NCBI GenBank assembly: GCA_008632985.1
Contig: QPGO01000117.1
Span: forward strand, 1-64,000
Direction of reading: 5' to 3'
DNA length: 64,000 nucleotides
From: Psammoneis japonica
Lineage: Eukaryota
Shown: in pieces, positions 15,651-41,348 of the stretch
Layout of the letters: every line of letters starts with the position of its first letter
Position numbering within the stretch: position 1 is the first letter of the stretch
Translations under genes and position numbers: made by a program
Notes under the pieces: model-generated
Seen by the model: only the letters and a program-made list of their open reading frames with translations
Database searches by the model: none
Told to the model about the DNA's origin: nothing

Positions 15651-15919
15651 GGTGAAACGAAAAAAGATTGTGCTGTTGCCAGAAGGTTGTCGCGCGCGGT
15701 TAGTCGGCGGTCATCCTAACAGGGGATCGAGCTCTAAAATACGAGCTCTTTTCGTTTGTTTGGCTGAGTACACGGACATCAACCAGCTTTTTGGATTTGC
15801 AGAGCAATCAACTCCACTCCACCCGTCAGACATGTACAAGGTCTGTTAATTTTATTACGTCATTGTGGCAGCCAAGGTCGGTTGCAGGCCTGGGAGGAGA
15901 GAGAGAAAAAGCACAGGTC

Positions 15920-16096
15920 AGGTGCAAATCATCATGATGCTCTGCATGTTTCTTGTCCTCGCACCACAATGACGAAGCCCTGATGGAAGCCCAACTTTGC
16001 AAGCTTTTCACCTGAAACTGTCAAGAACATCCACTGAAATCAGAAGTTCCATCAAACAGGGTTTTTCTTGTTCCACATTGACACATCTCAAACATG
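15920..16096 (-). pseudogene. Decayed copy of the neutral ceramidase last exon plus 3' UTR
   Basis: GTRKTLFDGTSDFSGCS*QFQVKSL vs GTRKILFGGTSDFSGCSRQFQVRSL at 44761-44850. The stop TAA has become CAA and a CGA has become TGA. Similarity continues into the 3' UTR. Confidence 0.85.
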
Positions 16097-17001
16097 ACTT
16101 TGCAAGGAATGCAGGCAATGGCAAGTTCCTTGTGTCCTTTGCAAGCAGATGATTCCCCAACACATGGCAACTCTGTGCAAAGATTCTTGAGGGTCAATGG
16201 CTTGGTTCTTTGGTCACCTGTGGGCTGGTCTTGGAGTGCTTGCAAGAGCACATGGCAAAGAGCCAGGCACCAATGTGTGTTGCTTGGTTTTGGGGCAAGG
16301 CTCAGAGGAGTGAGGCGGTGATCACTTTCTGCCTGTTGCTTCTGCTTTCCATCTTGATTCTTGTGGCCTCAGCACTGGCAGAGCAAAAGGCGCAAGGTGC
16401 ACCCATCCTCATCCAGTCATGGGTCTTTCCAGTTGTGAGATCCAAAGGTGGGTGCCACATCATCCATGGCAGCTGTGATGCCCCCCCTGCCACCAGTGTT
16501 TCAAATTGTTCAGCCAAGTGTCAGCCTTCCTGCATGGCAGCTGCAAATGCTCTGAGGGTGTGAATCTGATGTTGTTGGGCAATGGTGAGCTTGTCCATGA
16601 ACAGGTGGTCTTTGAGTTCAATTTTGCCAAGAACAACTTTTCCCAGTGGGTGAAAGCTGTGTCTTGCTTGTTCTTGTCAGTCTCTTTGGCATTTGCTTCT
16701 TGATGGGATCCTTTGGTGTCAAGGAGGAGGTTGGTTGGGAAACAACTTCTCTGGGCAGCAGCAAGATGCAAAAATTGTGATGAAGCAAAAGGGCAAGTGT
16801 GTCATCAGACAAGTTGCTGTCTCTCAACAGGCAGTTGCCAACAACATTCATTTTGTCTCCAGGAGCTGTTGGCTGAAGGATTGACTGTTGGCACCCATCA
16901 TGACAGATGCAAACTTGCTGGCAATTTCTGTCTGCTCTGGGTCAGTCTCTTTGTCAAAGTTGGATTTGCACAGCCAGCCCATGGTGGCAGTGCTGTTGTC
17001 C

Positions 17002-17049
<48 letters not shown>
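17002..17049. repeat. Compound (TG)n(AG)n microsatellite
   Basis: Read directly. Confidence 0.95.
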
Positions 17050-17050
<1 letters not shown>

Positions 17051-17599
17051 ACAAGAGAAAGGAGGGAAGTTGCCTTTGATGCAAGTGATCCACACACACA
17101 TGACGCTGGTGATGAATTTCTTGGTGTTGAGGGTGAGACTGTGAACCAGGTGATGGGGGAGCTCCCAACAATGTGCTCAACCCATTTGGACATTGCAGCT
17201 GCCAATGCAGTGTTCTGATGTGCATCCAATCAGCAGACATGGGCGGGTTTGTGGCAAGTGATCAGGCTCAGGTTGATGCCTGGGCATGGATCATGCTGAG
17301 TCAGCACAGATGGCATGAGAAATGGAAAGCATGCAGGACAATGTGTCCAAGATGGTTCAGGCAACCAACAAGCTGTTCAATCTCCTTGAAGGCACATCCT
17401 CCCCTCTTGACAAGTCTTTGGAGTTGCTTGGACCAGGCAATGAGTTTGTGTTTGGGAAGCACAGTGCGTGCATGTCGTTTGTTCGACAGTCAGCCAAGGG
17501 CTGTCCCAAGCACTTCAAGATGGTCTTTGGTGCAGAGCTTCTTCAAACAAGTGAGATCACCCCTGGCAAAATCTTTGTGAGGGTGAGCTGGTTGGCCAA

Positions 17600-18060
17600 T
17601 GTGTGAATTCCCGGAAGTGCTGTTGCTCTTCTCTTCATTCAATGTTGTCGTCAATGTCAGGTGCAGCTGTCACTGTGTTGTCAATGCAGACCTTGACTGT
17701 GCCCATCATGTTGTTTAGAGGAATGTTGACTGGCAAGTTGAGAGCTGGTGTGAATGGCACATCATTGCTTTCAAAGCAGTGAGAAGGAAGGTGATCAAGT
17801 GTGGGGTTGTGGGGGACTGGGTTCCAGGACTTGCATTGAAGGATGTCATTGGACAGACCACACACTGATTTGGAGAGATGTCACCCCACAGATTTGGGTT
17901 CAGCTTGCCTCTGAAGGCAAATCATCTGAGCTGACAATGGATTGCATGGTGCTGTGGCACTTTTCAAGTGGCCTTGGTGACGGGCCAACTTGTGGTCAAT
18001 CTTCTGCAGCCATCTCTTGGCATTTGCGTTGGGCTGTTCCTTGGGTTGCAAATGGGAAAT
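17600..18060 (-). mobile_element. Reverse transcriptase relic of a DIRS/Ngaro-like (YR) retrotransposon
   Basis: Across frames: KIDHKLA..GHL, PNLWGDIS..CGLSNDILQC, and VKVCIDNT..APDIDDN (a mutated YIDD motif). Confidence 0.55.
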
Positions 18061-18181
18061 CCCCAAAAATGACTGATTGTGGTCATTGCATTGACTTCTG
18101 CTCAAACAATGAAGATCACAGACAAGTGCAAAAGCAATTGCATCAAACAGTTTGTGACCCTTTCTTTCAAAATGACTCTTG

Positions 18182-18547
18182 TGCAGTGTGCGACTGTTGT
18201 GTGCACATGTGTGATCATGCGTTATTTGCACGTCAATCGTGCCACAGTCGTGGATGCGTGCGAAGGACAGAACGATCACACAGAGTTGATCGGAAGTCGA
18301 AAATCGCAAATACGATCGATGGACGATGCTGACATCTTATGTGTCAAAAGCAATCGCATTCGGACCATCTGTTGTCACGATTACATTCTCCGAAAGGCCT
18401 TTTGTCTGTAGAAGCAGCACAGAAGCTTTAGGCCATTGAGAACTCGTTCGGAGAAACCAAAATCAAAGAGCAAAATTTAATCTCATAATTTCCACTTTTT
18501 GCACACTGTTCTGCTTTCGTTTGCACTCGTTCTTCGAGCACAGTGCA
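18182..18547 (+). repeat. 5' LTR of the Gypsy element
   Basis: Ungapped match to 22454-22819. Confidence 0.95.
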
Positions 18548-21500
18548 TTGTGCACACACACCACAGAAGGTAAAAAGCACGGAAAATGAAAATTTTAACT
18601 GATGTGCCTTTGTAAATTCTTCTACAAACAGGAGCGAATCGCATCAGTTCTGCTGGAATCGATTTCCGAGCGGAAGAAGCTCAATCCGAGCAGCACCTCA
18701 AGATGGAACGCTGTTTTTCGTCTGCCAAACGAGAGGATTCGCTCTAATGCGGTCTGTTCCAAGCACCCAAGGATCAAGGGCTCTCAAGCACACCGCATTG
18801 TCAAAAAATCTACACCAATTCATGGTTGCAGAGAATGCAAGTTCCGAGTCGATCAGATCCGAGAAACACGTCTGCCATGCAAGGAGAGACTGTTGGAGAG
18901 TTTTTTGAGACCGAATCGATGATCCTCGAGTCCAAGGAGCAAGAGGGAATCGTTGGAAAGTGCCTCAAGCGTCTCACAACTCATGTCCTCTGAGGAAATG
19001 CACTTCAGAATCAGGGAAATTATTTTCGAGACGACCTGAAGAAACCAGAGCCGCTCAACAGCAAAGAAGCCTCTGACAGACCCAAGAGGTCAATGATGAG
19101 AGTCTGCATGACCCTCAGATCGATTCTAAGTCGAATCTAGCGGGAAAACGAGCGCTGAGTTGTCAGCCATCACTCGCACCGCAAGGATGGCAGCATCAGC
19201 CTGCTGTCCAAAATGTTGAACTGCTGGATCACACCCTTGACAAGCTGATTGAGGTTTGAGTCGTCCAGAGGTCGGCAAGGACGTCTGTGACAAAAAAATT
19301 TGTCAACTCAGGCTCTGATGGCGCAGTTGATTCCACAATCAAAAAGGTTCCAATTTTGGTTCCAAAAATGGTCTCCTGTGTGGTGCCAGAACAATCCAAA
19401 GTGAGTGCAAGGTCCAATCTTTCAACAAAGAACACCTGCATCACGGATTCAGGCCATTCTGCAAAAGAACTGGCGAAAGAATGCCGTGGACATGACAAAT
19501 GTGATCCAAAACGGCACAGTTCAAATGGCAATCGCACGCGGTCGCATCGCGATGACGACAATGCCTCTCGCAAAGAAGAGTTGAATGCTGTGGTTGTCCA
19601 AGCAGTTCAAAAAAATGCTCAAAGCGAGTTCTTCACACAAAGATAAAAAGCGCAAGAGCAAAAATTAAGACTCTAAAACGCTTGGCGAACAAAACCATCA
19701 ATTTAGAAAAAATTGACCCAATCGAGTCCGATCAAAAATTTGTGCCGCTCGAGGAGTGTAACGCGTCACAGGACGTCTGGAAACCCAGAAAAAGCATCAC
19801 AGTGTGTCACACGAGTCCTGTTCTCGCTGTCCACATGACTGCTGCTCTGAGAAAAGCAAAAAACAAGCTTCCACGTGTTCTCTCGACAAAGAACATCGTC
19901 AGCCCATGATTTTACGCAAAAATCGTGCGAAAGTTGAGAACCAAAACATCCGCCACCAAAAAACTTGGGAAACCAAGGGTGAGCTCTTTACGACTGACAG
20001 CAAACACCGAATTCAGTTCTCACTGCGCGAATTTAAGACTTGCTGACATTCAAACAGCACATGTCAACAACACCAAATGCCCTTCAAGGTCGAATGATGT
20101 GATCATGGGACGCGACTTAATGTCCAGTCTTGCAATCACACTAGACTGCGCAATTGAAGAAATCAAATGGGAATGAAGCAATTACCCTATGAAGAATGTT
20201 GATGCACTCTTCGACACAAAAATGTTCCAGCTGAATGCCGATCACATTGAAAAATGTCACACAGTGAATGGAGTTAACAACGAGACCGATGGTTCTCGAC
20301 TCACATTGTCACGCCGTCGATTCTAATCAAGTGACAGCTACAGCAATGCATCTAAACCAAAAGAAGATAAACCACTCAGTCTCCTTCTTATGAGGCTTAA
20401 AATCCTTTTGAAAAAGTTCATTGGACAAATGAATGGGAAGAACCAGTGGATCTCACCATGAAAAATCTGACGCGATCACGCGACGTGTGAGAACCTTCTC
20501 CTATCATAGTCTTTGGAGGCGTCCATTTGAAAGGAATTTAACCAATTATGAAAGATTGAAGATTTAAAAATGAAGTTGCGATTCAAACATGGAACACCAC
20601 GATGTAAAATCAAGAAAGCACACGTCGTGCTCACATCAGAATAATGCCGTGGGGGAAAACGAGTGCCATAGACTTCCAATAAGAATCTATAGAGCCCCAG
20701 ATATTTTCATACAACACATGAGCGAACTCATGACAGGTTTAAAGTTGTCAGAACGACCATGAATGAACGTTTGTGCCTGACAGAAAGTAACTTCAAAATG
20801 TCACCTGTACAAGAAAAACTTGAAATGGCATTCATACGACTAGAACAGTCGCTTTGAAGGTTAACAAACAAAAGTCCTTCACTACTTAACTTGAAAAATA
20901 TTATCAAGACTTCCACACGTAACGGCACACATCTGATTACAAAGAAAATGGAGGCGATTCCGGCAATCGCAACATTGAGCAAAACGTAAAGAATATTACG
21001 ACAGCTTGTCGATGTACGTTACTGCTATAAAGACATGTAGTCTCAATGATCTCCTGTACATTTCTAGCCAAATCCACCTCAATAAAGGTCAAACGGCAAA
21101 AGGACAAGTACAGAACGAAAAGTCTCCGAAAATATGGAGCGCATCATATCAAAAACTATGTTATTATCAAACATGGTATTGTAATATTCAAGTCACAACG
21201 GAAAAAGAACTTCTGTCCATAGTGGAAACACTTAATAATTCCCGGAATATACTGTTTGGCCAACAGATTATTATATATACGGTTCATAACACACAACGGA
21301 CATAGTCATGCGTTGACGACTTAAAATAAAAAATTTCAGTCCCGAATTAAAATACATCAAGGACAAGGCGAACGTCGTCGCAAGAGCGATCAGCCGACTT
21401 ACTATAAAAAAATAGAACCTATGGAAAACCTCAGCACAGAAGAGTTAGCTGAAAAGGTCCTACCAAAATCCTACGACAATGTCTTTCCGTTAAATTGCAA

Positions 21501-22453
21501 AGTTCTCGATACTGAACAAAACGGGATAAAGACATTTCCTCCAAATTGTCGGACGCGACATATCATACGAACACTTTTCGTCGAGGCGAGCGAGATCAAA
21601 AATGCTCATGTCATAAGGAAAAAATCGCCTTATTTAGGGACGGTTAAAGAAAAAATCAGTGACAGATTGGTATACATTATACGTACCTACTTCACATTGG
21701 CAAAAGACAATCTCACAGCACCCGTACGATTGTAATGTACGATGTACGAGGCAAGACATAAATAACGTCACACGAGATGTGCCAAAGATTCAGAAACAAA
21801 ACACAAAAATGGACATTATTTATCCGAATAGTGCACAAAAGCAGTGCCTTCGGAATGACGAAATGTCACCGGCATGTCAAAAAGAAACGTCCAAATAACG
21901 ATCAAAATCCAAAGGAAAGATGGTTGAAGTAATAAAGAAATCCATAAAGGAATCCATAACCATCCCAGGATTATCAAGACGAAATGGTTAGAAAATATCC
22001 TTGACCATCGTTAATTACTTACGATGCGTGGAAGTGCAGCAGAGCAATGTGGCACATATAAAGTTAGCCAGCCAGAACTACACGAACTCCACAAGTAAAG
22101 TGAACGCCATAATAATTAAAAGAGCGTACATTAAGTGCTGGGCACAATGCCAGGTACAATCGACATCATGAAAAACACTGCAGGACAATTGGTCCTTGTG
22201 TTCATGTCAACAAAGAACGTCAACGAGAACACTCGACACAATGCTGTGCACACATGCATGTAAAGTGAGAAACAAACGATGTCACTCTCACAAGACATTC
22301 GGAAATTGGAACGGCCCCACATGGCCCACACAAAACGACAACAGTCATCACCAATGGCACAATGCAGTGAACGTGGAGACATTGTTGACACTGTCAATGT
22401 CCGTCGAATGGTCCACTTAACAAATGACTCTAATGTGCAATTGGGGAGGCGAG

Positions 22454-22819
22454 TGCAGCACGCGACTGTTGTGCACATGCATGTGATTGCACATCATTTG
22501 TGTGTCAATCGCGCCACAGTCGTGGATGCGTGCGAAGGACAGAACGATCACACAGAGTTGATCGGAAGTCGAAAATCGCAAGTGCGATCGATGGACGATG
22601 CTGACATCTCATGTGTCAAAAGCAATCGTGTTCGGACTGTCTGTTGTCACGATTGTATTCTCCGAAAGGCCTTTTGTCTGCAGAAGCAGCACAGAAGCTT
22701 TGGGCCATTGAGAACTCGTTCGGAGAAACCAAAATCAAAGAGCAAAATTTAATCTCATAATTTCCACTTTTCGTGCACTGCTCTACTTTCGTTTGCACTC
22801 GTTCTTCGAGCACAGTGCA
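22454..22819 (+). repeat. 3' LTR of the Gypsy element
   Basis: Ungapped match to 18182-18547, preceded by the PPT. Confidence 0.95.
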
Positions 22820-22859
22820 CTTGAATGTGTGGACATTGCATTTGGACACTTTTGCTCAT

Positions 22860-23070
22860 TCTCACTCTGGAGCCAATTTGTCCCACTCTAGAGCTGTTTG
22901 ACTCTAGAGAGAATGTCACACTCTAGAATCTTGGGTTCTAGAATGTCACACTCTAGAACCATTCAATTCTAGAGTGGCACACTCCAGAACTGCTCAACTT
23001 CAGATTGTCCTGTTGTGCAGCCATTTGACTCTAGAATGTCACACTCTAGAACTGCTCAACTCCAGATTGC
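22860..23070. repeat. Minisatellite with TCTAGA every ~15 bp (~30-bp higher-order unit)
   Basis: Repeated tctagaatgtcacactctagaac, with TCCAGA/TCTGGA variants. Confidence 0.8.
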
Positions 23071-26019
23071 AACGGCTGCTGTTGAGTTTTGCTTGCATCT
23101 GTGGCAGCTGATGGCACCATGGGTTCCAGCTGATGGTGCCATTTTTTTTTACAGAGCTTGGCAACAACCAGGATCAGATTGCAGCTCAGCCAAGATGTGG
23201 TCCATGTTTGGGCACATGCTGCCATTTTTGAGCAATTCTTTCAAGCTGTTCCCATGGTGTTCACAAACCCAAGATTCCAGCATCTTGACAGATGTGACAC
23301 ACTTGAACATGCAACATCAGGCTCTCATCAATTCAGGCTCAAAGACACTGTTGATGAAGGGTCTGGGGAGATGTTGCATGCTCAGGAACAAGAGCCACAT
23401 GGGACACAACATGGCAGCTTCATGTCTCCCCTTGTGTGCAGTGTGCCAAATGACAAATGAAGCAAAATTGAGCATGACATCATGTGCTGGCTTTTGACAA
23501 CCTCAAATTTCACCCAGGTCATTGGTGCCAGGTGCATTGTCCAGAAACAGCTTGTCCTTTTCAAAGCACAAATCACTGATTCCTGGAGTTCAAATGAGAA
23601 CTTCATCAAAATTTCCATTCTCCTGTGCGCAAGTGCAAAATCAACTTTGCCACTGACAGCCAAGGGGAGATGTTCACAAGCAACCACTTGATCTGCAACA
23701 GATGACTTGCCATGCTGCTTCATTGAATTTGGTGTGAGCCTCTGAAAGGATTGATTGAGTCCTTGGCAAAGCAGTGAAATAGAACATGTGTTCCAGAAAG
23801 GAATCTAAACAGCAAATTGCTCTCATTCAATGGTGCTTTTGTTGCAGCATCGACAGTTGTGAGGACAGCAATGCAACATCCAATCAGAGTCAGAGCCACA
23901 AGAACTGTCAAGACAGAAAAGCAGTGTGCAGGTGGGAGAAACAGTGCTTCATCACTCTTGACAAGATTGCAAAACACAAGCAAGTGCATGAGCCGGCACC
24001 TTGCAACAACAGAAGCCCAGACATGAGAAAAAGCACCCAAGAACTGACAAGGCAGCTGGCCCTGCGGATTTGGAGAGATCCTTGAGGACATCTCAACAAC
24101 TGTCAATCACTGTCTGAGATGAGCAACAGACAAGTCAGTTAAAATGTGTGCACACTTCAGAGTGGCTGCATCTCAAGCATGCAAAACAATTTGCGCTCAC
24201 CCCATGGATGCCCAAATCACCTTCCATTTCCAAAAGCTCTTCTTTTCCATTTTTGACCAACTCCATCATGTGTCTGTGTAGATCAGAGTGCACCAAAAGC
24301 ATGAGATCTGTCGCACACAGGCCAGCTTGCAATTTCAAGACACGCTGCCAGATTCAGAGTGACCATCCATCAGATTTCTGCTTGACAGAACAGCAGCACT
24401 GAAAGGTAGAATCCTTGCATCCATCCCATTCCCAACAATGGCGAAGCCAATGTTTGGTTGACATGTGTGGGGAGCATTGTTGGTGGATGATGTCACTGCA
24501 CAATGTGCATTGACAACATCAGGGCTGCTTGCAGGAAAAGCCTGCATTTGACCCCACTCAGCCTGCAACATGCATGGCACCAGAGGTGCAAGAATTCTCA
24601 TCCACAAAAACAGCACAAGGAATGCTGTGAACCCCAGTGCACAACCACAAATGCAAGACAGCCCACTCTGCTTCAAATGGGTGCCTTGACATTTCCTGTT
24701 GCAACAGCACAAGCAATGGTCAGTGGAGTCTGTGAGAATGTTTCTTTGATGTGCAGACTTCCAAGCCACAAACAACAAACAGCAGAGAAAACAAGCTCGC
24801 GAGAAGGTGCAAGGCACCTCTTTGCTTTGCCAAAATGATGGATGCAATGCCAAGACAATTTGCACTTGACAAACTGACAGACATTTCCCATTGCAATTGC
24901 ACAAGTGCTGGCAGACAGTGGAGTCCACCATGAGAACATTTCTTTGACATGCAAGCTGTCCAAGAAGCCACAAATCACAAAGCGCAGAGCAGACAAGCTC
25001 ACAAGACATGCACGCCATTTTGCTTTGCTGAAATGATGGACATGACCAAGCCAATTTGCACTCGAGCAAATGGCAGTTGCAACAGTGTGGGACCCCTTTG
25101 AAAACATTTGACACCAGGAAGGCACAATTGCCGGGGAACATTCATCCTGAGAGATGCCATTGCTGAAATGCCTGACTGCAAACACAAAGAAAAAAGATGA
25201 AGGTGTGAGCACAAACAGCAAATTTTCTCCATTGCCCACAGTGCTGCTGAACTTTGCTCACCACCACCAACAAAGCAGATGTCACAGATTGGAAAGGAAG
25301 CAGTGGGCTGAGGTGCCGCTGCTCTGCTTTGGACACAGAGCTGTCTGAAGTGCTTTTGACATGTCATGCCATGCTGTTCTGCACCACTTTCTCCTTTGTA
25401 GAAGTTCTTGCAGGTGCAGCATGTTGGGACAGGCAGAAGTGCCAGCATTGTCCACCTCATTGCATTGTTTTGTCATTCGTGTGTGTGCTGAGTGCGTGAA
25501 TGGTGTGCGGCTGACAACAGACAATTCACACACCTCTGGCATGGCACAAGGTGTCATTGCTCCCAGACTGGAGTTTGCAGCAACCAGAACACCAATGGCG
25601 AGTGCAAATTTCAACAAAATTCCTCTTTCAGACCCTCTCTGTGAAAGAGAAATGAACTTAGAGTGCAGATGGCTTTTTTCTCAGCTCACAACATTTTTGT
25701 GCTTCATGCTTTTGGCACAACATTGTTTTGCCAAAAACAGAAGCACAAAATAAAAAACAACATTGCTGACCCCTCACAGGCATGAGGAAAATTCCGGTGG
25801 TGTCAAGAATGGATGTGTTGACAGTGACAGCTGCTGAACTGCTGCAAAAGGGCCTCAAGCTCACCTGTTGTGACTGTGCACAGCACACAGCACCAATGCA
25901 TTTGAAGTGTCAAAGACTTGAAAATTGCACTTGGCTTCACCCAGCAGCCTTGTAAATCCTTGGCTTTGCTGGCACATTGGACGTTGGCCTTGTGATCTTG
26001 CAAGTGGACAAAAAAAACA

Positions 26020-26215
26020 GTTCTGGAGCAGAGATCATCTCAGTTCTAGAATGTCCCACTCTAGAGCCATTTTAATTCTAGAATGCCATGTTCCAGAGCT
26101 GTTCAATTCTTGAGTGTCACATTCTAGAGCTGCACAATTCCAGAGTGTCACATTCCAGAACTGTTTGATTCCAGAGTGTGCCACAATCCAGGCTGCATTT
26201 GTCCACTCTAGAACT
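26020..26215. repeat. Second TCTAGA minisatellite, same orientation as 22860-23070
   Basis: tctagaatgtcccactctagagc and ttccagagtgtcacattccagaac variants. Confidence 0.8.
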
Positions 26216-27879
26216 GCAAGCTGTCTCACAGAAGGGACAAATCATGCACAAACCAAACTCTCCCTTGTGATGCAACAAATGTCTTGCTTTTTGTTCCAAA
26301 TCATGACTTTTTTGTTGTTTGAGTCTCACAACAGTCTTTTGTCAAACCTGTGGATTGCCATTTCAGGTCATTTTGGGGGTGTTCCTGGAGGCAAAGGGGG
26401 AGCTGTCAGCTGCAAAAGAGGGGGAGAAGACAAGTGGCAAGGAGGAACTTGACCCTCTTGTTGTGTCTTCTGACTTGGTCTGTCTCTCAGAGCAAAGAGA
26501 AACTTGATCCTTTCTTCTTGATGGTTCACAATTTGGAGCTGACAGGGGGTTGCAAGGTGGAGCTTGATCTTCTTGTTTCTTCCTGGCATTTTTTGTCTTC
26601 TTCTTGTTTTGCAGGCAAGCTCACATGTGCAAGCTGTTCAGAGCTGGGGTGTCACAGGAAGAAGGTTTGGGCAGTGGACATGGTTGTCCACCAGAGGATG
26701 GGCTTCTGAGGCTTTTCCTTGAGGTTTTGAGTGGCTGAACTTGTGAGAGAGGCAATGCAGCAGCCCTTGACATGGAACTTGTCACAGCATTCTTGAGTGC
26801 CTTTGACTTTTGGCAAAGATTTGATGTTCAGGTGAAATGCCTTGCTGCAGTCTTTGCCTTGTTTGAGTTTCCAGGTGGGTCAGTTGACTTTGGCACATGA
26901 AAATTAAGTTCATTGAACATCACACACATGGCCAAAGGAGTCAACACACTGTCTGATCTCTGTGTCCACACCAATGTCATGCACCACCACATGCTCAACC
27001 ACTGTGACTCACAGGATCAACAAATCATTGGAGGAGACACCAAAAGAGCATTTTTTGATTTGCTGGATCAGGCATGAACTTCAGCGAGGCAATTGCTGAC
27101 CTCCTGCACAAATGGCACAATTCAGTGACTGGAGTCCAAAGCACACTGCAAAGTGTGAGAGTGTGCTGCCAGTTCTCCTGCCCAACCTTTGTGGTGGCCA
27201 CCTGTTGCAAGGAGAGCAATGAAAGGGGCAACATCAACTTTTGGTGGTTGGCTGAGGAACACTTTTTCTTGGCTTCTTGGGACTTCACACTTGGGTGAGT
27301 GGCTGCATCATTTCCAAGCATCTGAGGACACTGCTGCAGTTGTTGATGCAACTGCCCACATGCAGAACAGCAACCATGAAGTTGCTCTCTTGAGCAACAC
27401 CCTCCATGCAATGGGGGGCCAAATGATCTGTAAATCCTCCTGGGCTGTTGAGTGATGACCCCAGTCTTTGTTGCAAGAACCATGTGTGAGAGAGCAACAC
27501 AAACAATTCCAAATTAACAAGCTCCCCTTGTTCACAACAAAGTGTGGGATTTGTGCACTGACAATTGTCCATCATTTCCAACAACTTTCTGTGGGTTCAA
27601 ATCAAGAACATGTCATCCCAATGAGTTTTGCACCACTCAACAAGTTGACAACAAAGTGTGCTCCATTGATGTTTTCTGAGAACTGATGGACATTCAATCA
27701 GCTCTTGACTGGTGTTCTCAAATTCCTGTTTTGGGGTGTTTCTCTTTGACTCATCTCAAATCTTTGGTTTGCATGTCATTTCCACAGTTGAGTTTTGCCA
27801 CACAATCTCATTTGGAGCAATGTTGCTGCCACTGCATGGTTTGCATTCACCAAATCTCAATCAACTCCAGTTCTCTGTG

Positions 27880-30500: not shown

Positions 30501-30614
30501 AGTCAACAAGCATGTTTGTTTGTTTTGTTTTGCATGCCAGAAGGTGGGTCAACTCTCACTGGCCCTCAGACAGACATGCAGAGTGAGAGCGCCTTGTTGA
30601 TCTGTGCATTGCCC

Positions 30615-31480
30615 TTGTGAGACAATGTCAAATGTGCTTGCCTGCTGAAAAAAGCATGAGAGGCTTGTGAAGTGCACAAGAGCCATGTGACCTGATCAGC
30701 TGTGCAAGCAAATGTGGCACTGGATGACTGTTTTCTGCCAGCTGTGTCAGCCAATGGCAGCAGAGCAGTTGCCAGAGTTCTTGTTGAAAGAAGAGCTCTC
30801 CAGTGGGCACAGGAGTTGCAGGGGCAGGTGCTGCATCTCACAGCCTTCCTTCTTGGCAGTGAGCAGGACTTTTTTGGCAGGCCAAGAAGGGCAAGCAAAA
30901 GCTCACTGTCACCTCACCTTGCTGAGTCAAGATGGTGCTGAGAAAATTGCCAATTTCTTCTTTGCAGCAAAGACTTTGACTTCACCATCAAGAATCCTCA
31001 CATTGCCAGCATGGCCAACAGCTTCAACTTGTTTGTTGCTTGTGAGACAATGTCAATGTGCTTGCCTGCTGAAAAGCATGAGAGGCTTGTGAAGCACACA
31101 AGAGCCATGTTGTGACCTGATCAGCTGTGCAAGCAAATGGCATTGGATGGCTGTTCTTTGCTGGTTGCATCAGCGCGCCATTGGCAGCAGAGCAGTTGTC
31201 AGAGTTCTTGTTGAAAGAAGAGCTGCTTGCATTCTCTCCAGTGGGCACAGGATTTGCAGGGGCAGGTGCTGCATCTCACAGCCTTCCTTCTTGGCAGTGC
31301 ACAGGACCATTTTGGCAGACCAAGAAGGGCGAGCAAAAGCTTGCTTTCACCTGGCCTTGCTGCACCCTGATGGTGCTGAGAAAATTGCCAATTTCTCCTT
31401 TGCAGCAAAGACTTTGACTTCACCACCATCAAGAATCCTCACATTGCCAGCATGGCCAACAGCTTCAACTTGTTTGCTGC
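30615..31480. repeat. Tandem duplication of about 430 bp; a third partial copy lies at about 36360-36680
   Basis: gagacaatgtca...tgacctgatcagctgtgcaa...catcaagaatcctcacattgccagcatggccaacagcttcaacttg occurs twice. Confidence 0.85.
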
Positions 31481-31740
31481 TGGTGCTTTTTGAGCTTTGT
31501 TTCTGCACCCACAGGTGTTCAACCAACCTTCACCACTTGTTTGTCAGGTTGTCATCCTGTCTGCAGCTGTGGCGCAGTGCAAGGCAACTGCAGTCAGAGC
31601 CTCTTTGCAGCACAAGTTCTTGTGCACAGAGCTGTGATGGATGTGGAGCATCAGCCAGAGGTGTGTCACACAACACAGGACATCTTTGGCTGATGAAACC
31701 AAGAGAAAGCATCTCAAACTTTGCAGTGGAGAGGATGTTT

Positions 31741-32189
31741 TGCAACGCACAGCTGCCAATGAGAGTCAACGTATCACGGCGACGTGTTGCAGCCTTTAAA
31801 TGTCACAAAGGGCGTGACAAAAATGACCTTCTGTCTGCATGCATGCTGCACCGTGAATTCACAGCGGAGTGGTTCATCTCGCAACCATCAGGCAGGAGGC
31901 CAGGGGTTCGAAACCCTGAGTGGGAGTTGTCTGCAGCAACGTTGATCACGGTCGAACGCGCAAATCTCTGTGCAGTTCTGTGTGTTCCTTCGCACGCACC
32001 CACACTGTTCCGCCAAAACCGTGCAGTGTCAGTGCACGTCAGTAAAGAGCCGCATGGACGCGTGACACATGGGGAGGAGTGCAGTGTGCAGCTGCCAATG
32101 AGAGTCAATGCATCACGGCGACGTGTCACAGCCTTTAAATGTCACAAAGGGCGTGACAAAAACAACCTTTTGTCTGCATGCATGCTGCA
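31741..32189 (+). mobile_element. TRIM (449 bp) with 110-bp LTRs
   Basis: LTRs at 31741-31850 and 32080-32189 with TGCA...TGCA ends. TSD GTTT. PPT GGGGAGGAG (32071-32079). Confidence 0.9.
31853..31930 (+). promoter_or_regulatory. tRNA-derived segment with Pol III A and B boxes inside the TRIM
   Basis: A box (C/T)AGCGGAGTGG at 31862-31872 with D-stem GCGG/TCGC. B box GGTTCGAAACC at 31905-31915 with T-stem CAGGG/CCCTG. The anticodon arm is degraded. Confidence 0.7.
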
Positions 32190-32599
32190 GTTTTGCTCTG
32201 CAGTGGCGCAGCTTTTGGAGCACCAGAGAGACAGCTGTCATGGAGGGCAAGCAACACACAACAAAGAGGAGTTGCAAATTTGTTGCGGGTCCAAAGGGGG
32301 TGCTTCCTGCAAGGAAGCAATGCTGCTGCTTCACCTGACAATGCTTGCCACCCATCTCCCAGTGTCGTCAGAGGAGACACCTGAGACCATGATGTGTGCG
32401 CAGTTGAAGGGGCCAGTGTGTGCTTCAAGTGCGTGGGAACAGTTTCCAGCTGTGCACAGGCAGCTGTGCACTGATGAGAAAATTCTCTTGATTTTTTCCT
32501 TGAGCAGGGGTTTCATCCAAAGGATCACTTGAGAAAAAATCAAGGGGTGGCTTTGCCACAAAAGAATTGAAACAGCTGCGTTTCTTGTCCAAGAGAGAA

Positions 32600-34200
32600 A
32601 GCAAGACCCCTGATGATGGCACTCTGTGTCACTTTGCAAGGCACCACGCATCAGATTCAAAATCAAACAGGAAAGAAAGCTCTCCTCTCAGCGAGCCAAG
32701 CTTCAAAATGATGCTCAAGAACTGCTTGCTGCACACAGTGCATCATGTCCAAAAATTGCAACTTCAGAAAATTACAAAAAACTGGCAAAGTGGGAAATGA
32801 TGACCACTTTGCAACAAATTCAACTTCATGACATGAAACCATTTGGAAGCTTCTCCATGATCTCTGTTGCCTTGTTGGGTGACTCTGAAAGTGCAGCACT
32901 GCTGTGGCATTGTGTCCATCAGATCTTTGTCCTTCAAATTTGGGAACCTGCTGCAAGAACCCCCCAGCTCATTCAGCTCAGGACAAGTGGGCAAACCTCC
33001 CTTTCACAACCACTCAAAAGATCCAGCAAAGAACAGATTTGGGAATTCCACACCCTGTGTGGGTGGTTGTAAAGATCAACCTTCCACTGCAGCAGTGTTG
33101 TTGGTGCCAAAGGTGTTTGGTGTGCTGGAAAACCCCAACATGATGCAGGTTTGGAAAGACACAAAAAGTCTTGCCAATGCTGCAAAGGTGTTTGGCACAT
33201 TGGAGAACACCAAATCATTGACTTGGATGGCCTCTCTGGGCACATTGGGTTGCAGCTGGTTTTTTTGGATTGTTGCACTCATTGCAAAAACAAGTGGTGC
33301 ACAGAGCCAGATCACAGTCACAACCCAATGTGATTTTGCCACAGACAATTTTGTGCTTCTTGTTGTGCAGCTCAGTGAGGCAGTGTGGCATGCTGCAGAT
33401 GCAGCCTGGTTTGATGCAACATGCTGAGGGGCAAGATCTTTCTTCTTCTTCTTCTTCTTCCCTGGCACTTGACTGACCCCTCTGCAAAGACACAAGAGCC
33501 CCTTGAATGGAGCCAGAATTGCCAACAAAAAAAGCCAGATGTCCTCTTTTTGCATGCCATCTCTGTGACTCAGATGGGGGCATCTTGCTTTTCTGTCCCC
33601 TTTGACTGGCTGGCCTTCTGGCCAACATGCCTTGCAACTCTTGTGCTGAATGATCAGCTGGGTTGTGCTGGTGTGTGACAGCTGGTTGTTTCTGAACCTG
33701 TGACATGATGCCTGTCTGGATGACTTTGTTGCCCATGCATTGGGCCCAAATCTGCACATCTGACCAGGTGCCTGGTTTTTGCATTCCTTGTCATCTTTGT
33801 TGGGAGCATGCACTGCAACCCCCTGTCTCTCTGTTCTGTTGTCTTTTTGCAGATGTGGCCTTCCACAGCTGAAATGCACCATGGTGAGTGTGGCTGTTGC
33901 AGACAGCAAAAATCCAGACCTTGGCTCAGCTTTGCTCATTGACTCTGTCCAGCGTCCAATTGGCACACATCAACTGCTTCCCGCAGCAATGACCAGTCAG
34001 GTTTGGAGGGGTGTGTCTAGCTTTTTCATCCAAAAACAGCTGGGCTCACATTTCATCACTCCGCTCCAGCACTCTGGAGTTGTCTTTGTTCTGACTCCCA
34101 CTGCAACATCCTGACAGCATTGCTGCACTCAACCATTTCTGACAAAGGCCAGTTTTTCAGAGGTGCTCACATTTGCAGCAGAGCTTGGAAAACACCTTCA
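32600..34200 (+). repeat. Diverged ~1.6-kb direct repeat, copy 1 (unclassified TE relic)
   Basis: Shares gcatcagattcaaaatcaaacag, ctcaggacaagtgggcaaacct, tggagccagaat and aaaggccaNtttttcagaggtgctcac with 39010-40700. Confidence 0.8.
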
Positions 34201-37200
34201 TTGGGAGTGTGACATCCACGGCAGCTCAGCTGGTGCTGAAGAGTGGTTGCTTGCAACAGAGTTGCCAGAGCAACTCAATCCAAGATTGGGTTGCCAGCCC
34301 CCAAAGCCTGTAAAAATTCAAAGTGAAGAGCTGGCCCACAAAATGCTCTGCTTCTGGAGTTGTTGTTTTGAGAGCTTGGCAGAGCTCCAGACCCATTGCT
34401 GAGGGCAGTTTGCTCTGTTGAAAAGGAGCACTTCCAGCTTTGCCAGTCTCCAAGTCCATTGAATCTCCACAGTGCTAAAAAATGCAACACCTTCATTGAG
34501 CGAGAGTGGGCAGAGCCCAGAAAGGGCAGTGCTGCCTCAAGCTTTAAACAAGGGTTTTTGCATCTGTGTGGGCACCCCCTTTTTGTCATCAAAGCAGTTG
34601 CCAGTGGGCACTCCAGTGACTTTGGAACACCTCCTGTCAGCAACAGCAGCAACTCTGCATGGGCGAGGTGACCACATTGCACCTCATCACCCCACTCCAC
34701 TTTGTGACCTTTGCTTGCATTGCACCTCTGCCTTTGCCCTCAAGTTGCCATCCACAGTGACCCACACCATCTGCAAAAACTTTCCTTGCTTCCTGGGCCT
34801 CTGTGGCTGGTCAAAGGTGTCATTCTGCCTCTTTGCAACCCAGGAGGGGGACACCACCTGGCATTTGCTCTGTCATCTCCATTGTCTGGCAGCACTGTCT
34901 GTTGGTTTCCCACACCACTTGAAAGGGGCCAGCAGCCAGAAGCTTTCATCTGACCCAAGTGCTTGTCCAGCAGCAGCACACTCTCTCCCTTCCCCCAACA
35001 GTCAACCACATGCTGAGTGCCGCCAGAGTGCCACCACCTTCTTGCAATGGGTTGCCTTGCCACCTGCTGACATGTCTGGCAGATCTGCGCCATCCACAAA
35101 TGTGTGGAAGGTGCAGCGCTCATTTTGTGTCTGTTTCTAAAAGGCCGCATTGCTTTGATTTTGCTGCTTTGTTTTTCACATCAGCTGTCATGATGTTTGA
35201 CAATTGACTTCATGGCTGGACACAAAGGCAAAGTTTTGAAAAGTCAAAAACCAAAGTTTTCTGGGCCAATTTTGACAATTTGAGGTGACTCATTTTGAAA
35301 AATGGGCTCTTTGGAGCTGCTCTGAGATCTTTTGTCTTGGTGCATCGTGTGCCACAGACCACGGGGGTTGGGAGAATGCACAATTGTCTGTGTGGCTGTG
35401 GATCTTGCAATGGGTGGGCCTTGATCTGAGCTGAGGGCATCAGATGCTCACCGGTCATTTTGTGCACACATGCGCACAAAACAACAGACTGTCTCTGTGT
35501 GCCTCTGGAGCATGCCACCCAGAGGCTCACTCCACAACTTCTGAGCTGCTGGTTGGAAGCAGTGCCAAAGGAGGCAAAAACAGCAAAAACAGCCAGTGCT
35601 TCTGCAGAGCCTCGGGCCAAGCCTCTGCCAAGTGAGCATGGGGCAAGTGACAAGCTGGGGCAGCCACCCGCAGCTTCAAAGTGTGGCTTTGCTGTTGTGT
35701 TGTGGCAAGCATGCTGGTGCTGCTCTGACCCAGACCATTGTGCCACTTCATTCATTTTTTTGACATCTCATGCACTGATGTCACTTTGTGAGCCATGCAT
35801 CCATTTCATTGCTTCAAATCTTGAAAAGTGTCTGTTTCATTTGGTTTCATGCGTTTGTTGTGTTTTGTTTGAAAATTTCAAACTGCATGACATTTTTGAA
35901 GCCACCATGCAAACCACATGCTGGTCATGGTGCACAACCAAGTCACAGGGCTGGAACATGTCAGCATGATGTTCCTTGCACATGACAGAATGCAAAGGCA
36001 CAGCAAGTTTCCTGCCAGGAAAGATGGGAAGCTGGCTGGTGCTGGCATCAGCAACATCTTGGAAAGCCCTCCTCAATTAAGAGCACCAGGCATCTCATGG
36101 CTGTGCTGATTGTGTCATGTGAAGACACACACATTGATCTGTTTTCAGCACCCTGCAAACAGGAATGCACAGCCAGGGATGGGGTGACACACTCTCAGCT
36201 TCCAGGGCACACAGGGTGCTCAAAACCACAGAGCTTCTTGGACACCTCTGTGCAATCAGAGATCCATCCAGCACAGAAAATCAAACACCCAGGTCAGGAG
36301 ACAGATGTTGGGTCATGCCTGTTTTGACACACAAAAAAATCCAGCAAAGTCTGAACCCATGTGGCAGTCAACTTTTGCTGGCCCTCAGATGGAAATGCAG
36401 AGTGAGGATGCCTTGCTGATCTGTGCAGTGCCCTTGAGACAATGTCAAACGCACTTGCCTGCTGGAACATGGGAGGCTTGTGAAGCATGCAAGAGCCATG
36501 TGACCTGATCAGCTGTGCAACAAGCAAGCTGGCTTTGGACAGCTCTGTTTTCTGTGGTCACATTGGTGCAGCTGCAATTGCTGGAGTTTTTGTTGAAAGA
36601 AGAGCTCATTGTTCATCCTCTGCAACTGGCACAGGAGTCATGGGGACTGGTGCTGCATCTCACAGCCTTCCTTGGTTTTGGGGTCATCCAGTGCACAATC
36701 AACCCACAGCACAACAGCAACCCTGTTAAAAGAGTTGCCCAAATTTGTTGAACAATGCTTGCTGCCTGTCTCTTGCCATCACATGAGACATTTGAGATCA
36801 TGGTGTGTGCGCGGTTGAAGGGGCCAGTGTGCTTCAAGTGCACAGGCACACTTTCCGGCAATGCAGAACTGCAAACTGATGCAAATTGTCTTGATTTTTT
36901 CCTTGCGCAGGGGCTTCATCCACAAAGGATTGCTTGAGAAAAAATCAAAGGGGTGGCTTTGCCGTGCTGAAAAATTAAAAAAAGATTGAAAAAGTTGCAT
37001 TTCTTGCCCAAGAGAGATGTTGTAGTTTCACAGCTTGCTGCCCAGTGTGCATTTGGTTTCACTGACCCCAAATTCATCATGTGGCTTTCAAACACATTCC
37101 AATGCTGTCAACCTCTGTTGCCACATTGGCCGGGTGCAAAAGCCAAAAGGTGAGCACAAGACCCACTCAACCCAAGTTGCAAATGCAAATTTGCCACATT

Positions 37201-37379
37201 GATCACAATCGTCAATGTGTCTTCCACTGCAACTTTGTTTGTCTCTGTCCCACAAAATCTGCCTCCAACCCCAATGTTCCAAAACACTCCTTTGCACAAG
37301 CCATCAATCGACTGGCCTTGTGTGTGTCAAACACAGGAGGACAACACTTGGAATCCATGCCACAATCCAATGCCACATC

Positions 37380-38420
37380 GACTGTTCCACCAATTCCCAT
37401 GGTCTGCATCATCCAACTCCATCAACAAATGACTGTTGTCAGGACAATCCTTTCTCACATGCCCAACCTCATTGTGTTTCCAGCATCCAGTCTGCTTCTT
37501 CTTCTTGTGTGCAAAACTTGTGCCTTCCTCAGGTTTTTTGTTGGTCCTGCTGGTGTCCAACAACCACCTGTGGTGCCTCCTTGGCTGAACTGGGACAAAT
37601 GTCACCCCCCAATGTGAGCTGCTGATGAAGGTCTTTCAAGACATGCCAACATTCCTTGGCACCTTCCACTGGCATCACCGCTGACAAGAGCTTGTTCCTT
37701 TCTTTGTTCCAGGTGTCACAGGCTTCCTTGCTGAACCCATCTTGTCTCTCAGCAATTTCTTCCAGGATGGTCCTGCCATGGGACATCTCTGCTGCTTCAG
37801 CCATGTTCACAAACCAATTGTGATGATCTTGAAGTGCCTCTCCCTTGTCTTGACAAATGAGGGCCAACTGCTTCAAAGCCTTGACAGCCTGGGCATGCAA
37901 GTTTGTCTTCTCATTTGCATCAAACAAGATTGACTTGAGAACATCCAGCAGTGCCACCACTCCCCGCTCCTCAGCAACTCTTGCAAACTCTGCCACTCCT
38001 TCAATTTTGTGATGAATGGCCTTTGCACATTGCCCCACAATTGTGCTGAACACCCTCACCTTCTGCATCTTGCAGACCATGTTCTGTTTGGCACAGTGAC
38101 CACATTGCTTGCCCCCAGATTGCCTTGTCCTTCTTTGACAACATGGTGTCTCCCAATGGACAATCCAGATCTGTTGGCATGCTCTCCTGCCTCACAGATG
38201 CCAACACCTGCATCTTGTCTGGCCCAAACATTCTTCCAACAACACTCAACAATCTTCCTCATGGTTTCCATGTGACCTCTGCCTGTCATCCTGACTTGGC
38301 AATGGTGTCATGCACCCACTCCTTCAAATCTTTTGTGCTTTTGCACTCAGCTGTGTCCTTGCCCATGTTTTCTGGGACTTGTGTTGGAGTTTTGCTGCTT
38401 GCCAACTGCTGCACACTCTG
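37380..38420 (-). mobile_element. Copia (CoDi-like) gag relic with zinc knuckle
   Basis: KVRVFSTIVGQC...LLDVLKSILFDANEK...LKDLHQQLTLGGDICP, followed by CWKHNEVGHVRKDCP (degenerate CX2CX4HX4C). Confidence 0.75.
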
Positions 38421-38562
38421 TCTTGCCAGCCCCAACATGGCCTCACCACACCCTCTTTCAGCAGACCCTTGGCAGCTTCTTTGACAGCAAGGCCCTCAAG
38501 AGATTGTTTCTTTGCCCTCATCCAGCTGACTCGCTCATCACAATCTGCCAACACAAGGCATG

Positions 38563-38655
38563 CCTTTGGATTCCTGTCAACTTCCAGCTTTTCCTTTGGA
38601 TTCCTGTCAATCTCCCAGCCCTTGACTTTGGATTTCTGTCAACTTCCCAGCCTTT
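38563..38655. repeat. Three tandem copies of a ~31-bp unit
   Basis: ctttggattcctgtcaa...ccagc occurs three times. Confidence 0.8.
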
Positions 38656-39009
38656 CAACAACACCACTCCTTTGAGTGTAATGCCATGCCTTTTTAGCTT
38701 GTCCCGTGTTGTCAGAGTTTCACAGCTTGCTGACCACCACATGTGTGTTTTTGGTCTTGCCAACCCCAAACACACCATGTGGCTCACAAACACATTGCTG
38801 ATGGTGCTGTCAGCTGCTGTTGCCATGTTGTGCAGAAGCAAAATGAAGTGAGCACAAGACCCACAAGAACTCAACCCGAGTCATGAAAGCAAATTTGCCA
38901 CATTGTCCACAGTTGACAGTGTGTCTTGCTTCCATTGCAACTTTGTCTGTCTGTCCTGCAAAAAGTGCCTCTGACCACAATGTTCTGACAAAAGAAAGCA
39001 GTGCCCTTG

Positions 39010-40700
39010 ATGATGATGGTGCTGTGCATTGCTTTGAAAGGCACCAGGCATCAGATTCAAAATCAAACAGGGGACCTGCTCTCTCAGCCAGCCAAGCTTC
39101 AGCACAATGCTGAAGAGCTGCTTGCTCTGGACACAGCCTGTGTCCAAAAATTGCAACTTCAGAAATGACAAAAAACCAACAAAATGGGAAATTACAAATT
39201 TGCAACAAACCCAACTTCATGGTGTGAAACCATTTGGAAGGCAGCTTCTCCACAATCTCTGCTGCCTCATTGGGTGACTCTGAAAGCACCAAGCTGCTGT
39301 TGCATGGCTTTGTGCCCATCAGGTCCTTTTCCTTCACCAAATTTGGACACCTGCTGCAAACCAGCCACTCAGCTCAGGACAAGTGGGCAAACCTTTCTTT
39401 CACAATCACTCAAAAGATCCAGCAAAGAACAGGTTTGGAAATTCCACCCCCTGCATTGGTGATTGAAAAGGTCAATCTTTTGCTGCACACTGCCACACCC
39501 GCAGACTGTTTTTTTGGGCAAAGAACTTTGTGCAGCTTGAGAAAATTGTCTCAGGATCAAAACCAGCATGAGGTCCTCTTCTTGGTGCCAAAGGCATTTG
39601 GTGGTGCACTGGAAAAACCCAACATTTCACAGGCTTGGAAAGACTGATGAAAGTTTTGCCAGTGCTGCAAAGGTGTTTGCACATGACTTGAGAACACCAA
39701 ATCATCAATTTGGATGACATGGGTTGCCCACATGTTTGGCGTTTGGCGGTTGGGTCTCAATCCAATGGACTGACTGTGTCTCCTCCCTGCACCCATCAGA
39801 TTGAAGTTTTGGATCATCACAATCATTGCAGAAACATGTGGTGCACAGAGCCAGATTGCAGCCACAACCCAACTTGGTTTGGCCTCAGCCAGACAGTTTT
39901 GTGTGTTTGTTGCATGGCTCATGCAGCAGCAAGGCAGTGTGGCATGCTGCAGATGCAGCCTGGTTTGATGCAATGAGGAGCAAGATCTTTCCTCTTCCCT
40001 GACAATTGATTGACCCCTCTGCAATCCAATGGAGCCAGAATCATCACAGCTGCAGCCAGCAGCCAGATCATCTTTTTGCAAGATTTCTCCATGACTCAGA
40101 TGGCAGTGTCTTCTCTGTCCCCTTTCTTGACTGGCTGACCCTCTGGCCAACTTGTCACACAACTGCTGTGGATGATCAGCTGGATTGTTGCATGGCTGCC
40201 AGTTGCTCCTGAACCCACGGCACATCTTTCTCAACAATTTTGCTGCCCACGCATCATTGGACCCAAATCTGCCATCCAACTGAGTCATGGGGTGCTTTCA
40301 TTGTCATCTTTGTTGAGGGTGTGCACTGCAAACCTCTGCCTCTGTCTTGTTGTCTTTGCAGATGTGGGTTCTCCACAGCCAACAAACACCAAACAGTGAA
40401 TGTGGCTGTCACAGGCAACAACCCTGACCTTGGCACAGCTTCAAGCACTGACTCTGTCCAATGCCCAAGTGGTCTGCATCAATTGCTTCCTGCCACACAA
40501 TGACCAACCAGGTTTGGAGGGGTGTCCAGCTTCATCAAAAGACAGCCAGGTTCATGTTTCATCACTCCATCCCTGAGTGCTCCAGAGTTGTCTTTGTCCC
40601 ATCTCCCGCTGCAACATCCGACATTGTTGCTGCGCTCAACTGTTTGTGACAAAGGCCATTTTTTCAGAGGTGCTCACCTTTGTGGCAGAGTTTGCAAAAC
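39010..40700 (+). repeat. Diverged ~1.7-kb direct repeat, copy 2
   Basis: Collinear similarity to 32600-34200. Confidence 0.8.
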
Positions 40701-41348
40701 AACTCATGCAGTCTGTTGGAACATTGGGGCTGGAGAGGCAGTTTTCACATGACAGAGAGACAAGCTGCAGCTTGAGATGTGCTGGCGGCAATTGTAGACA
40801 GCATGGCAAGTTTGGCGCGCTTGCAGCTCAGATTGAGTTGCGGGTCTTGTGCTCACATTTTGGCTTCTGCACCCAGTTGACATGGCAATGACAGCTGGCA
40901 ACATCTGCCAATGTGCTTGCAAGCAACGCAGCTGGGCGTCACAGGAGGCGAGACCAAACGTGCGCCAGCTGGCAAGCTGTGAAACCCCAAAACTGTCAGA
41001 AAACATGGCGCCATCCTCCCAAAGTTTGTGAGAGCTCACGCAGCTGGCAACGGCAACTCAACTGCTTTTGCAGAGCCTTGGGCCGAGGAGCTTCTGTGAA
41101 GTGAGTGCAGAAGTGACTGGCTGGGGCAGCCACCCACAAAAACTCCAAAGCATGGCTCTGCGCTGTTGTGTTGTGATGTGCACACTGGTGCTCTGACACC
41201 ACCCAGAGTTGTGTGTTGAAAGCAAAGCCAGGCGCAGCTGAGCTTGCCACAGTCGCCAGCCACAGAAGGCTGGGCAGTTTTTGAGATTGAAGTGGAGCGT
41301 GTGCACTGGCAGACCTTTGCACCACTTTGTTTTTTGCTTTGCTTGCTA

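Follow-up and report, generated by a model that had tools for sequence, protein, structure and literature searches.

Near-complete loss of TpA from mobile-element DNA in a Psammoneis japonica contig: a probable case of TpA hypermutation

Composition and borders of the depleted DNA

The DNA considered here (the window) is a stretch of 64,000 nucleotides from Psammoneis japonica, namely positions 1 to 64,000 of the forward strand of contig QPGO01000117.1 (GenBank assembly GCA_008632985.1). It carries genes of normal composition and two blocks, housing a long terminal repeat (LTR) retrotransposon, a second multi-copy element and old DNA, from which the dinucleotide TpA has been almost completely lost. 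Through sliding-window analysis, three kinds of DNA have been distinguished: (i) genes at 7.6-15.8 kb and 41.5-64 kb (30.5 kb), with an observed/expected ratio (o/e) of 0.53 for TpA and 1.02 for CpG; (ii) “TA-only” blocks at 1501-7500, 28001-30000 and 31501-32500 (9 kb in total), with 0.09 and 0.68, respectively; (iii) deep blocks at 1-1000, 16001-18000, 23001-28000, 30001-31500 and 32501-40500 (17.5 kb in total), retaining 38 TA (o/e 0.03) and 83 CG (o/e 0.08), with TG and CA at 1.85 and 1.86. Loss of CpG without loss of TpA occurs in no block of the window. The original prediction, made from the sequence alone, had set TA-poor repeat-rich DNA against genes with normal TA, and the ratios (0.03-0.09 against 0.53) bear this out. 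The extent that it gave, 15880-41340, agrees with the main depleted block; a second block at 1-7,560 lies outside it, and CpG is lost as well.

In the left depleted block (1-7560), segments of 500 bp contain 0-7 TA where 24-31 would be expected; CpG is also gone in 1-1000 and mostly retained in 1501-7500. The main block, delimited by composition and border scan, spans 15900-41340. Its deep part at 16001-18000 holds one TA and ten CG in 2 kb and is single-copy by k-mer depth; a perfect (GA)15.5 microsatellite is located at 17019-17049, inside this deepest TA- and CG-free DNA. At 23001-28000 TA and CG are both gone and no protein remnant is recognisable. The segment 28001-30000, containing an open reading frame (ORF) at 28793-29710 on the minus strand, has lost TA and partly retained CpG, and 30001-40500 is mostly deep, with old internal duplications and CpG retained in 31501-32500. 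The block 22820-41000 contains 50 TA, against 1199 ± 27 in 200 mononucleotide shuffles and about 635 at a gene-like o/e.

The missing dinucleotides are balanced by TG and CA. Relative to a gene-like o/e, the TA-only class has lost 439 TA and CG and gained 440 TG and CA, and the deep class has lost 1544 and gained 1479, with TpA making up 38% of the latter loss and CpG 62%. The gains of TG and CA are equal (2038 against 2003). From genes to depleted DNA, the o/e of AA moves from 1.15 to 1.24 and that of TT from 1.19 to 1.20, overall A+T is unchanged, and the G+C content of the depleted DNA is 0.45-0.52. Among the other dinucleotides containing A, AT is the only one depleted; this fall in AT, like a concurrent rise in GC, follows from the changes at ATA/TAT and GTA/TAC. 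The triplets TAA and TAG, counted on both strands, number 80 in depleted DNA and 562 in an equal length of genes, and because of this scarcity many long ORFs run through all frames of the depleted DNA. These contain 0-0.8% tyrosine and up to 11.5% cysteine, and long false ORFs without tyrosine are thus a pitfall for the annotation of TpA-free DNA.

The borders are sharp, within about 50-100 bp, and TA is dense just outside all three border gaps. At the right border of the left block, the last TA before the gap is at 6956 and the next stand at 7536/7592. The main block is TA-free from 15856 to beyond 16400 on its left side, about 150-200 bp upstream of the upper end of a CAP-Gly ORF (13827-15710, minus strand), and between 40795 and 41347 on its right side (border at 41300-41347).

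The LTR retrotransposon

An LTR retrotransposon on the plus strand occupies 18178-22823, with 366-bp LTRs at 18182-18547 and 22454-22819 and broken internal ORFs. The LTR ends are TG..CA, the target duplication is CTTG (4 bp), and a purine tract, GGGGAGGCGAG, precedes the 3' LTR. Since the LTR structure and the target duplication are intact, both LTRs were identical at insertion, and every difference between them has arisen afterwards. The original prediction had called the element Gypsy; its LTR structure stands, and the family label rests on one sub-threshold match among 20 short ORFs, to the Pfam domain RT_RNaseH (PF17917) at 20979-21302 with 23.1 bits (cut-off 24.8). No Pfam match to reverse transcriptase (RT), integrase or gag has been obtained in the ORFs of the element. 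The k-mer depth is 27,379 for the LTR and 4,800-7,700 for the internal part, compared with about 60 for genes. Related 31-nt tandem arrays are located at 22910-23052 (4.6 copies), just 3' of the 3' LTR, and at 26040-26195 (5 copies).

The LTR alignment of 366 columns contains 35 differences, all of them transitions, with no transversion and no indel, and 33 of the 35 fall in shared pyrimidine-purine (YpR) steps. They are distributed over 25 differing sites, in categories whose counts match the original prediction: ten CA/TG, eight TA against TG/CA, five CG against TG/CA and two others. The latter are 18310 (A/G), the sole A to G change outside TpA, and 18509 (T/C). The TACA/TGTA site, for which an ancestral TATA had been proposed, lies at 18382-18385. 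Both LTRs have kept TA at 2 sites and CG at 21, and TA survives in one copy only at 8 sites. The resulting per-copy hit probability is 0.67 for TA (1.10 hits per site), 0.11 for CpG and 0.006 for other sites; the rate ratio TA : CpG : other is about 190 : 19 : 1, the last figure coming from two background changes only. The change at TpA has therefore been faster than CpG decay, and because the hit rate at TA far exceeds that at CG, most of the CA/TG sites of the LTR pair descend from TA.

Depletion is uneven along the element. TA is nearly absent at 18,200-20,500 and 22,200-22,800, and CpG is retained throughout; the 5' half has an o/e of 0.19 for TA and 0.94 for CG. A core at 20500-22200 has been spared and shows a normal TA content of 4-11 per 100 bp.

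Sequencing runs and variation

Two sequencing runs have been compared with the window. X1 is a DNA run, presumably of accurate reads; its contigs have a k-mer depth of about 60, are interrupted at repeats and extend up to 315 kb, and contigs of such depth and length would hardly be obtained from noisy long reads. X2 is a second library, recorded as “DNA?” but read as RNA-derived because its contig omits three short CT..AC intervals; stretches without X2 cover (5,337-8,004 and 16,009-20,000) are not counted as evidence of silence. Over the TA-free stretches 16640-16993 and 17062-18181, X1 contigs show 0 differences at a depth of 61-65. The possibility that TpA loss is a base-calling artefact, raised with the original prediction, is very unlikely in view of this base-for-base match and of the X1 depth.

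X1 and the window do differ elsewhere. In genes, 2 of 6684 and 0 of 2230 positions are different, and in parts of the depleted DNA 10 of 748, 8 of 934 and 3 of 709; X2 differs at 14 of 744 positions within 4611-5354. Individual X1 variant positions are those among 40 listed out of 199. Among the listed differences, TG and CA are swapped between X1 and the window at 523-4, 866-7 and 987-8, each swap therefore implying two independent hits. Contig depth is 46.6-55.3 where differences occur and 58-65 where they do not, a drop that would fit heterozygous sites. The concentration of X1 variants at TpA sites in depleted DNA is an indirect hint that the hypermutation may be recent or ongoing and may take place during clonal growth.

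Direction of the change

Three independent lines of evidence, namely a sister copy, tyrosine columns and X1 variants, identify TA as the ancestral state. The first of these is a repeat fragment at the edge of the main depleted block (15921-16087, plus strand) with a sister copy at 44688-44851 in normal DNA. The sister has TA at four steps and CG at five where the depleted copy has TG/CA, and one step is reversed.

The remaining lines come from two ORFs in the left block. The k-mer depth is about 60-90 over 4.0-7.3 kb, as over 16-18 kb, and 50-70 for the single-copy ORFs. The ORF at 4415-5383 (plus strand), which is single-copy and encodes an F5/8 type C (discoidin) domain, contains 0% tyrosine and 8% cysteine; both X1 and X2 have TA at 4731, 4737 and 4754, which turns Cys, Cys and His, respectively, into Tyr. 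A gene resembling monooxygenases dependent on flavin adenine dinucleotide (FAD; PF01494) lies at 5774-7392 on the minus strand in two frames, 6814-7392 and 5774-6916. These frames overlap by about 100 bases, owing to a frameshift or a short intron. The closest relatives of ORF 5774-6916 are diatom proteins at 45-47% identity. Seven alignment columns are rich in tyrosine, defined as Tyr in at least 40% of ten relatives, and the window residue in them is Y in 1/7, C in 3/7, H in 1/7, F in 1/7 and Q in 1/7. X1 variants at 6615 and 6634 give back TAC (Tyr) in this gene. Throughout 4000-7450, 9 of the 13 listed differences have TA in X1 and TG/CA in the window. Cys or His thereby becomes Tyr in five cases, two of them in columns that are aromatic among the relatives; at 6870 the window base agrees better with the relatives than the X1 variant does. 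The A:T to G:C change at TpA on both strands, as originally proposed, is thereby corroborated.

Sequence context

The TA steps surviving in the depleted blocks (n = 96) are not a random sample of contexts: ATAT is represented by 0, ATAC/GTAT by 1 and GTAC by 1, and CTAG (24) and TTAA (13) are enriched. This distribution suggests that the base 3' of the mutated A ranks T > C > A > G. No strand-coordinated clusters of TG against CA have been detected, the runs test giving z = -2.4 in deep blocks and z = -2.6 in genes; since the two are alike, there is no sign of processive action on one strand. The flanks of CpG display only a mild shift (GCG 0.40 against 0.21) and no TCG-type motif.

Proposed explanation and its alternatives

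The pattern is probably the product of local TpA to TpG/CpA hypermutation at the DNA level, within a silent mobile-element domain and accompanied by slower loss of CpG. In such a process an A:T to G:C change would take place at TpA on either strand, site by site, after insertion, and would run on until TpA is almost extinct. The target domain would be composed of mobile elements and their decayed remains, held silent, and a slower CpG to TpG/CpA loss, the usual fate of methylated CpG, would be superimposed on the same DNA. An enzyme presumably drives the change, most simply one that deaminates adenine preceded by T to hypoxanthine; the base 5' of A34 in tRNA is U33, and a T-A context would accordingly suit the ADAT2/TadA family. 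Because single-copy DNA has been mutated and a high-copy core spared, the target would appear to be the domain and not repeats as such, and the process may be guided by the state of the chromatin more than by repetition of the sequence. The process may have a role in genome defence or be a by-product of defence.

Several observations weigh against this explanation or narrow it. The two mutated single-copy ORFs (4415-5383 and 5774-7392) and the 1.7 kb of the high-copy LTR element left untouched make both “repeats” and “foreign DNA” poor labels for the target, and the repeat targeting proposed originally is not sustained. No new mutation has been seen directly, all data come from one 64-kb window and one sample, and X1 may be the source data of the window and not an independent individual. 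The oldest blocks owe more of their TG/CA surplus to CpG (62%) than to TpA. Since the CTAG survivors are concentrated in the two 31-nt arrays and the terminal repeats of a single element, the context ranking draws on few independent sites. Adenine deamination and thymine modification leave the same palindromic signature. Unlike in the rhizarian alga Bigelowiella natans, discussed below, the window ORFs carry no viral hallmark, none having appeared in Pfam scans of 112, 39 and 44 of them. Finally, tRNA-ligase homologues served to collect 38 diatom-like loci, 314 kb in all, from metagenomes; TA o/e fell below 0.2 in none of their 570 1-kb windows (minimum 0.29), which is a weak test, as these loci are gene-rich and hardly sample silent DNA.

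That the modified base is thymine rather than adenine is unlikely, although the base changes themselves would look the same. In this case, a TET/JBP-type oxidase would act on TpA in silent chromatin, and its product, 5-hydroxymethyluracil or 5-formyluracil, would mispair with G, as 5-formyluracil does at replication. TpA being palindromic, T to C is indistinguishable from A to G on the other strand, and the equal gains of TG and CA suit either route; on the other hand, no evidence of such bases in diatoms has been found in the literature searched, and the B. natans authors favour an ADAT2-like deaminase, without experiment. Decay of methylated CpG alone, with the CA/TG sites derived from CG and the elements TA-poor from the start, is very improbable. 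It draws on the deep blocks, where CpG o/e is 0.08 and CpG loss supplies about 62% of the surplus, and on the formal ambiguity of CA/TG discordant sites. CG ancestry, which the original prediction had named as an alternative, therefore holds for a large share of the deep-block sites, but the TpA effect remains: TA has been lost where CpG is retained, as in the 5' half of the LTR element; eight LTR sites show TA against TG/CA, with both-copy retention of 21 CG against 2 TA; tyrosine codons have been converted and are given back in X1; and at four steps TG/CA of the depleted repeat fragment stands against TA in its normal sister.

The other alternatives fare even worse. It is scarcely credible that a modified base at heterochromatic TpA was miscalled as TG/CA in sequencing or assembly: X1 does have TA at nine listed sites (4731-7003) where the window has TG/CA, but X1 contigs at a depth of about 60 reproduce the TA-free stretches, the X1 version of 6484-7231 is itself still strongly TA-poor, and the second library, X2, agrees. 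GC-biased gene conversion, or biased mismatch repair among repeat copies, would fit the AT to GC direction and the location in repeats. Yet the effect is limited to TpA and leaves the o/e of AA and TT and the overall A+T unchanged, single-copy ORFs are mutated too, and TG against CA at the same site of two copies amounts to divergence, so this process deserves almost no weight. Selection against TA and CG, whether through nucleases or binding proteins or for the suppression of TATA-like promoters, is exceedingly doubtful, as the DNA is decayed, non-coding and devoid of recognisable function, conserved tyrosine codons have been destroyed in ORFs and the loss tracks element age.

A broader form of the hypermutation hypothesis can be put forward only tentatively and is, as a whole, rather unlikely. 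It would see a chromatin-guided defence by a DNA adenine deaminase, common to stramenopiles and rhizarians and thus old in the stramenopile-alveolate-rhizarian (SAR) group, acting on each chromosome copy in dividing diploid cells, preferring T-A-pyrimidine, and erasing TpA nearly completely, before CpG methylation and without depending on it. If such a shared defence is real, comparison of this DNA with B. natans and with signature-free diatoms could name the enzyme.

Relation to known systems

The original prediction knew of no described system with this signature. TpA to TpG/CpA hypermutation has, however, been reported in B. natans, in a 2026 preprint that is the only report of the signature found in the literature searched (10.64898/2026.01.13.699255). 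Of the new mutations that arose in an integrated giant-virus region and a virophage region of mutation-accumulation lines, 230 of 231 were of this type, at about 6e-7 per site per generation and with hypermutation in 11 of 15 lines (10.64898/2026.01.13.699255). Targeted A:T to G:C hypermutation of nuclear DNA is not known to have been described earlier. The B. natans genome contains 124 clusters of TpA-poor, CpA+TpG-rich windows, its TpA-poor genes include transposon domains, and an ADAT2-like DNA adenine deaminase has been proposed by Mettrop et al. (10.64898/2026.01.13.699255).

The likeness is extensive. In both organisms the changes are transitions only, A:T to G:C at TpA on both strands, in silent regions and at a rate orders of magnitude above background, and the long-term trace consists of TpA-poor, CpA+TpG-rich clusters; by analogy, the process in the window may be the same as that in the mutation-accumulation lines. 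There are also differences. B. natans is a rhizarian, whereas the host here is a diatom-like stramenopile. The targets there are integrated nucleocytoplasmic large DNA viruses (NCLDV) and virophages, and here LTR elements, old DNA of no identifiable kind and two host-like ORFs. Depletion reaches a Rho of 0.45 in the NCLDV region, compared with 0.03 in the window. The words CpG and trinucleotide are absent from the main text of the preprint, which thus describes no CpG loss and no preference for flanking bases, unlike the present analysis, whereas de novo events have been seen in B. natans and not in the window, where there are hints of allele-by-allele action. No report of the signature in diatoms, or of an A-to-G repeat defence, has been found in the literature searched.

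The window thus represents a second, far more saturated case of TpA hypermutation, in a stramenopile. The process is accordingly not a quirk of one strain, nor limited to viral inserts, and it can rewrite tens of kilobases. Having two lineages helps a comparative search for the enzyme, possibly a natural editor of DNA adenine with context specificity, and scarcity of TpA can serve to recognise silenced DNA in algal genomes and to estimate its age.

Similarity to fungal repeat-induced point mutation (RIP), as far as the source describes it, relates to the restriction to transitions, the inactivation of mobile or duplicated DNA, the leakage into single-copy neighbours and the dinucleotide skew (PMC2621366). 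The chemistry is opposite: RIP changes C:G to T:A, mostly at CpA, creating TpA and AT-rich DNA, whereas TpA is destroyed here to an o/e of 0.03, with G+C holding at about 48-50%. RIP is moreover premeiotic and repeat-dependent; in the window, single-copy ORFs are mutated and a high-copy LTR element only in part. Diatom transposons are described as methylated at CpG (PMC9998398, PMC5124317). Decay of methylated CpG matches the CG to TG/CA changes of the older blocks, where the flanking-base effect is weak, but this decay has no means of removing TpA, and in the LTR pair it has proceeded at about one tenth of the TpA rate.

With regard to known deaminases, the amphioxus protein BjADAT2, to which the B. 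natans preprint refers, is reported to deaminate both A and C in DNA, in the contexts GAA and TCG (PMC10354150), which differ from the TpA context found here. Hypermutation of retroelements by deaminases is also known from ADAR and APOBEC, and ADAR prefers a 5' U, according to the preprint (10.64898/2026.01.13.699255). Unlike the editing by these enzymes before integration, which leaves identical LTRs and affects one strand, the LTRs differ in the window and both strands are equally affected. The 3' base preferred by ADAR is G, whereas TAG is the most resistant context here.

Other elements and genes

A multi-copy element of 2.7 kb on the plus strand occupies 1253-3936 in the left block, with 167-bp terminal direct repeats at 1260-1426 and 3764-3930 and a 6-bp duplication (GTGCAT) at 1253-1258 and 3931-3936. 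Its k-mer depth over 1.3-4.0 kb is 1000-5300, against about 60 in genes. The terminal repeats differ at 11 of 167 positions, all 11 being transitions in YpR steps (5 CA/TG, 1 CA/TA), so that in the two terminal-repeat pairs of the window together 46 of 46 differences are transitions. The element is possibly absent from one allele: an X1 contig joins 1252 to 3931 as an empty site would, a weak hint in that the short side measures 24 letters (fewer than the 31 required).

The old internal duplications within 30001-40500 comprise nine pairs of 70-87% identity, with 377 transitions, 167 transversions and 85 CA/TG discordant steps. Pfam analysis of 112 ORFs of 15.5-41.7 kb gave none above threshold, and that of 39 ORFs of 1-7.6 kb gave the two host-like genes only. 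For ORF 28793-29710 (minus strand) no homologue was found among 5,847 candidates, and for ORF 31093-32529 (plus strand) none among 1.84 billion representatives.

In the DNA of normal composition, an intronless gene at 52588-55875 (minus strand) encodes a tRNA ligase of 1096 aa with an RNA_lig_T4_1 domain, related to diatom proteins at 35-46% identity, which identifies the host as a diatom or close kin of diatoms; because the closest of these reach only 44-46%, the host lineage is poorly sampled. A neutral/alkaline ceramidase gene at 44764-47493 (minus strand) is split over at least four ORF pieces and therefore has introns. The CAP-Gly gene next to the main block is covered by a spliced X2 contig up to 15649. 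This contig omits 11952-12040, 12197-12284 and 13734-13826 (89, 88 and 93 bases, with CT..AC ends), which would be short GT..AG introns on the minus strand, and ORFs 12066-13823 and 13827-15710 are probably one gene. Within the 96 bases of 9983-10078, X2 stands apart from the window and from X1 at seven listed positions, four of them A>G in the sense orientation of ORF 9761-11176; this could reflect RNA editing, an error at the contig end or another allele.

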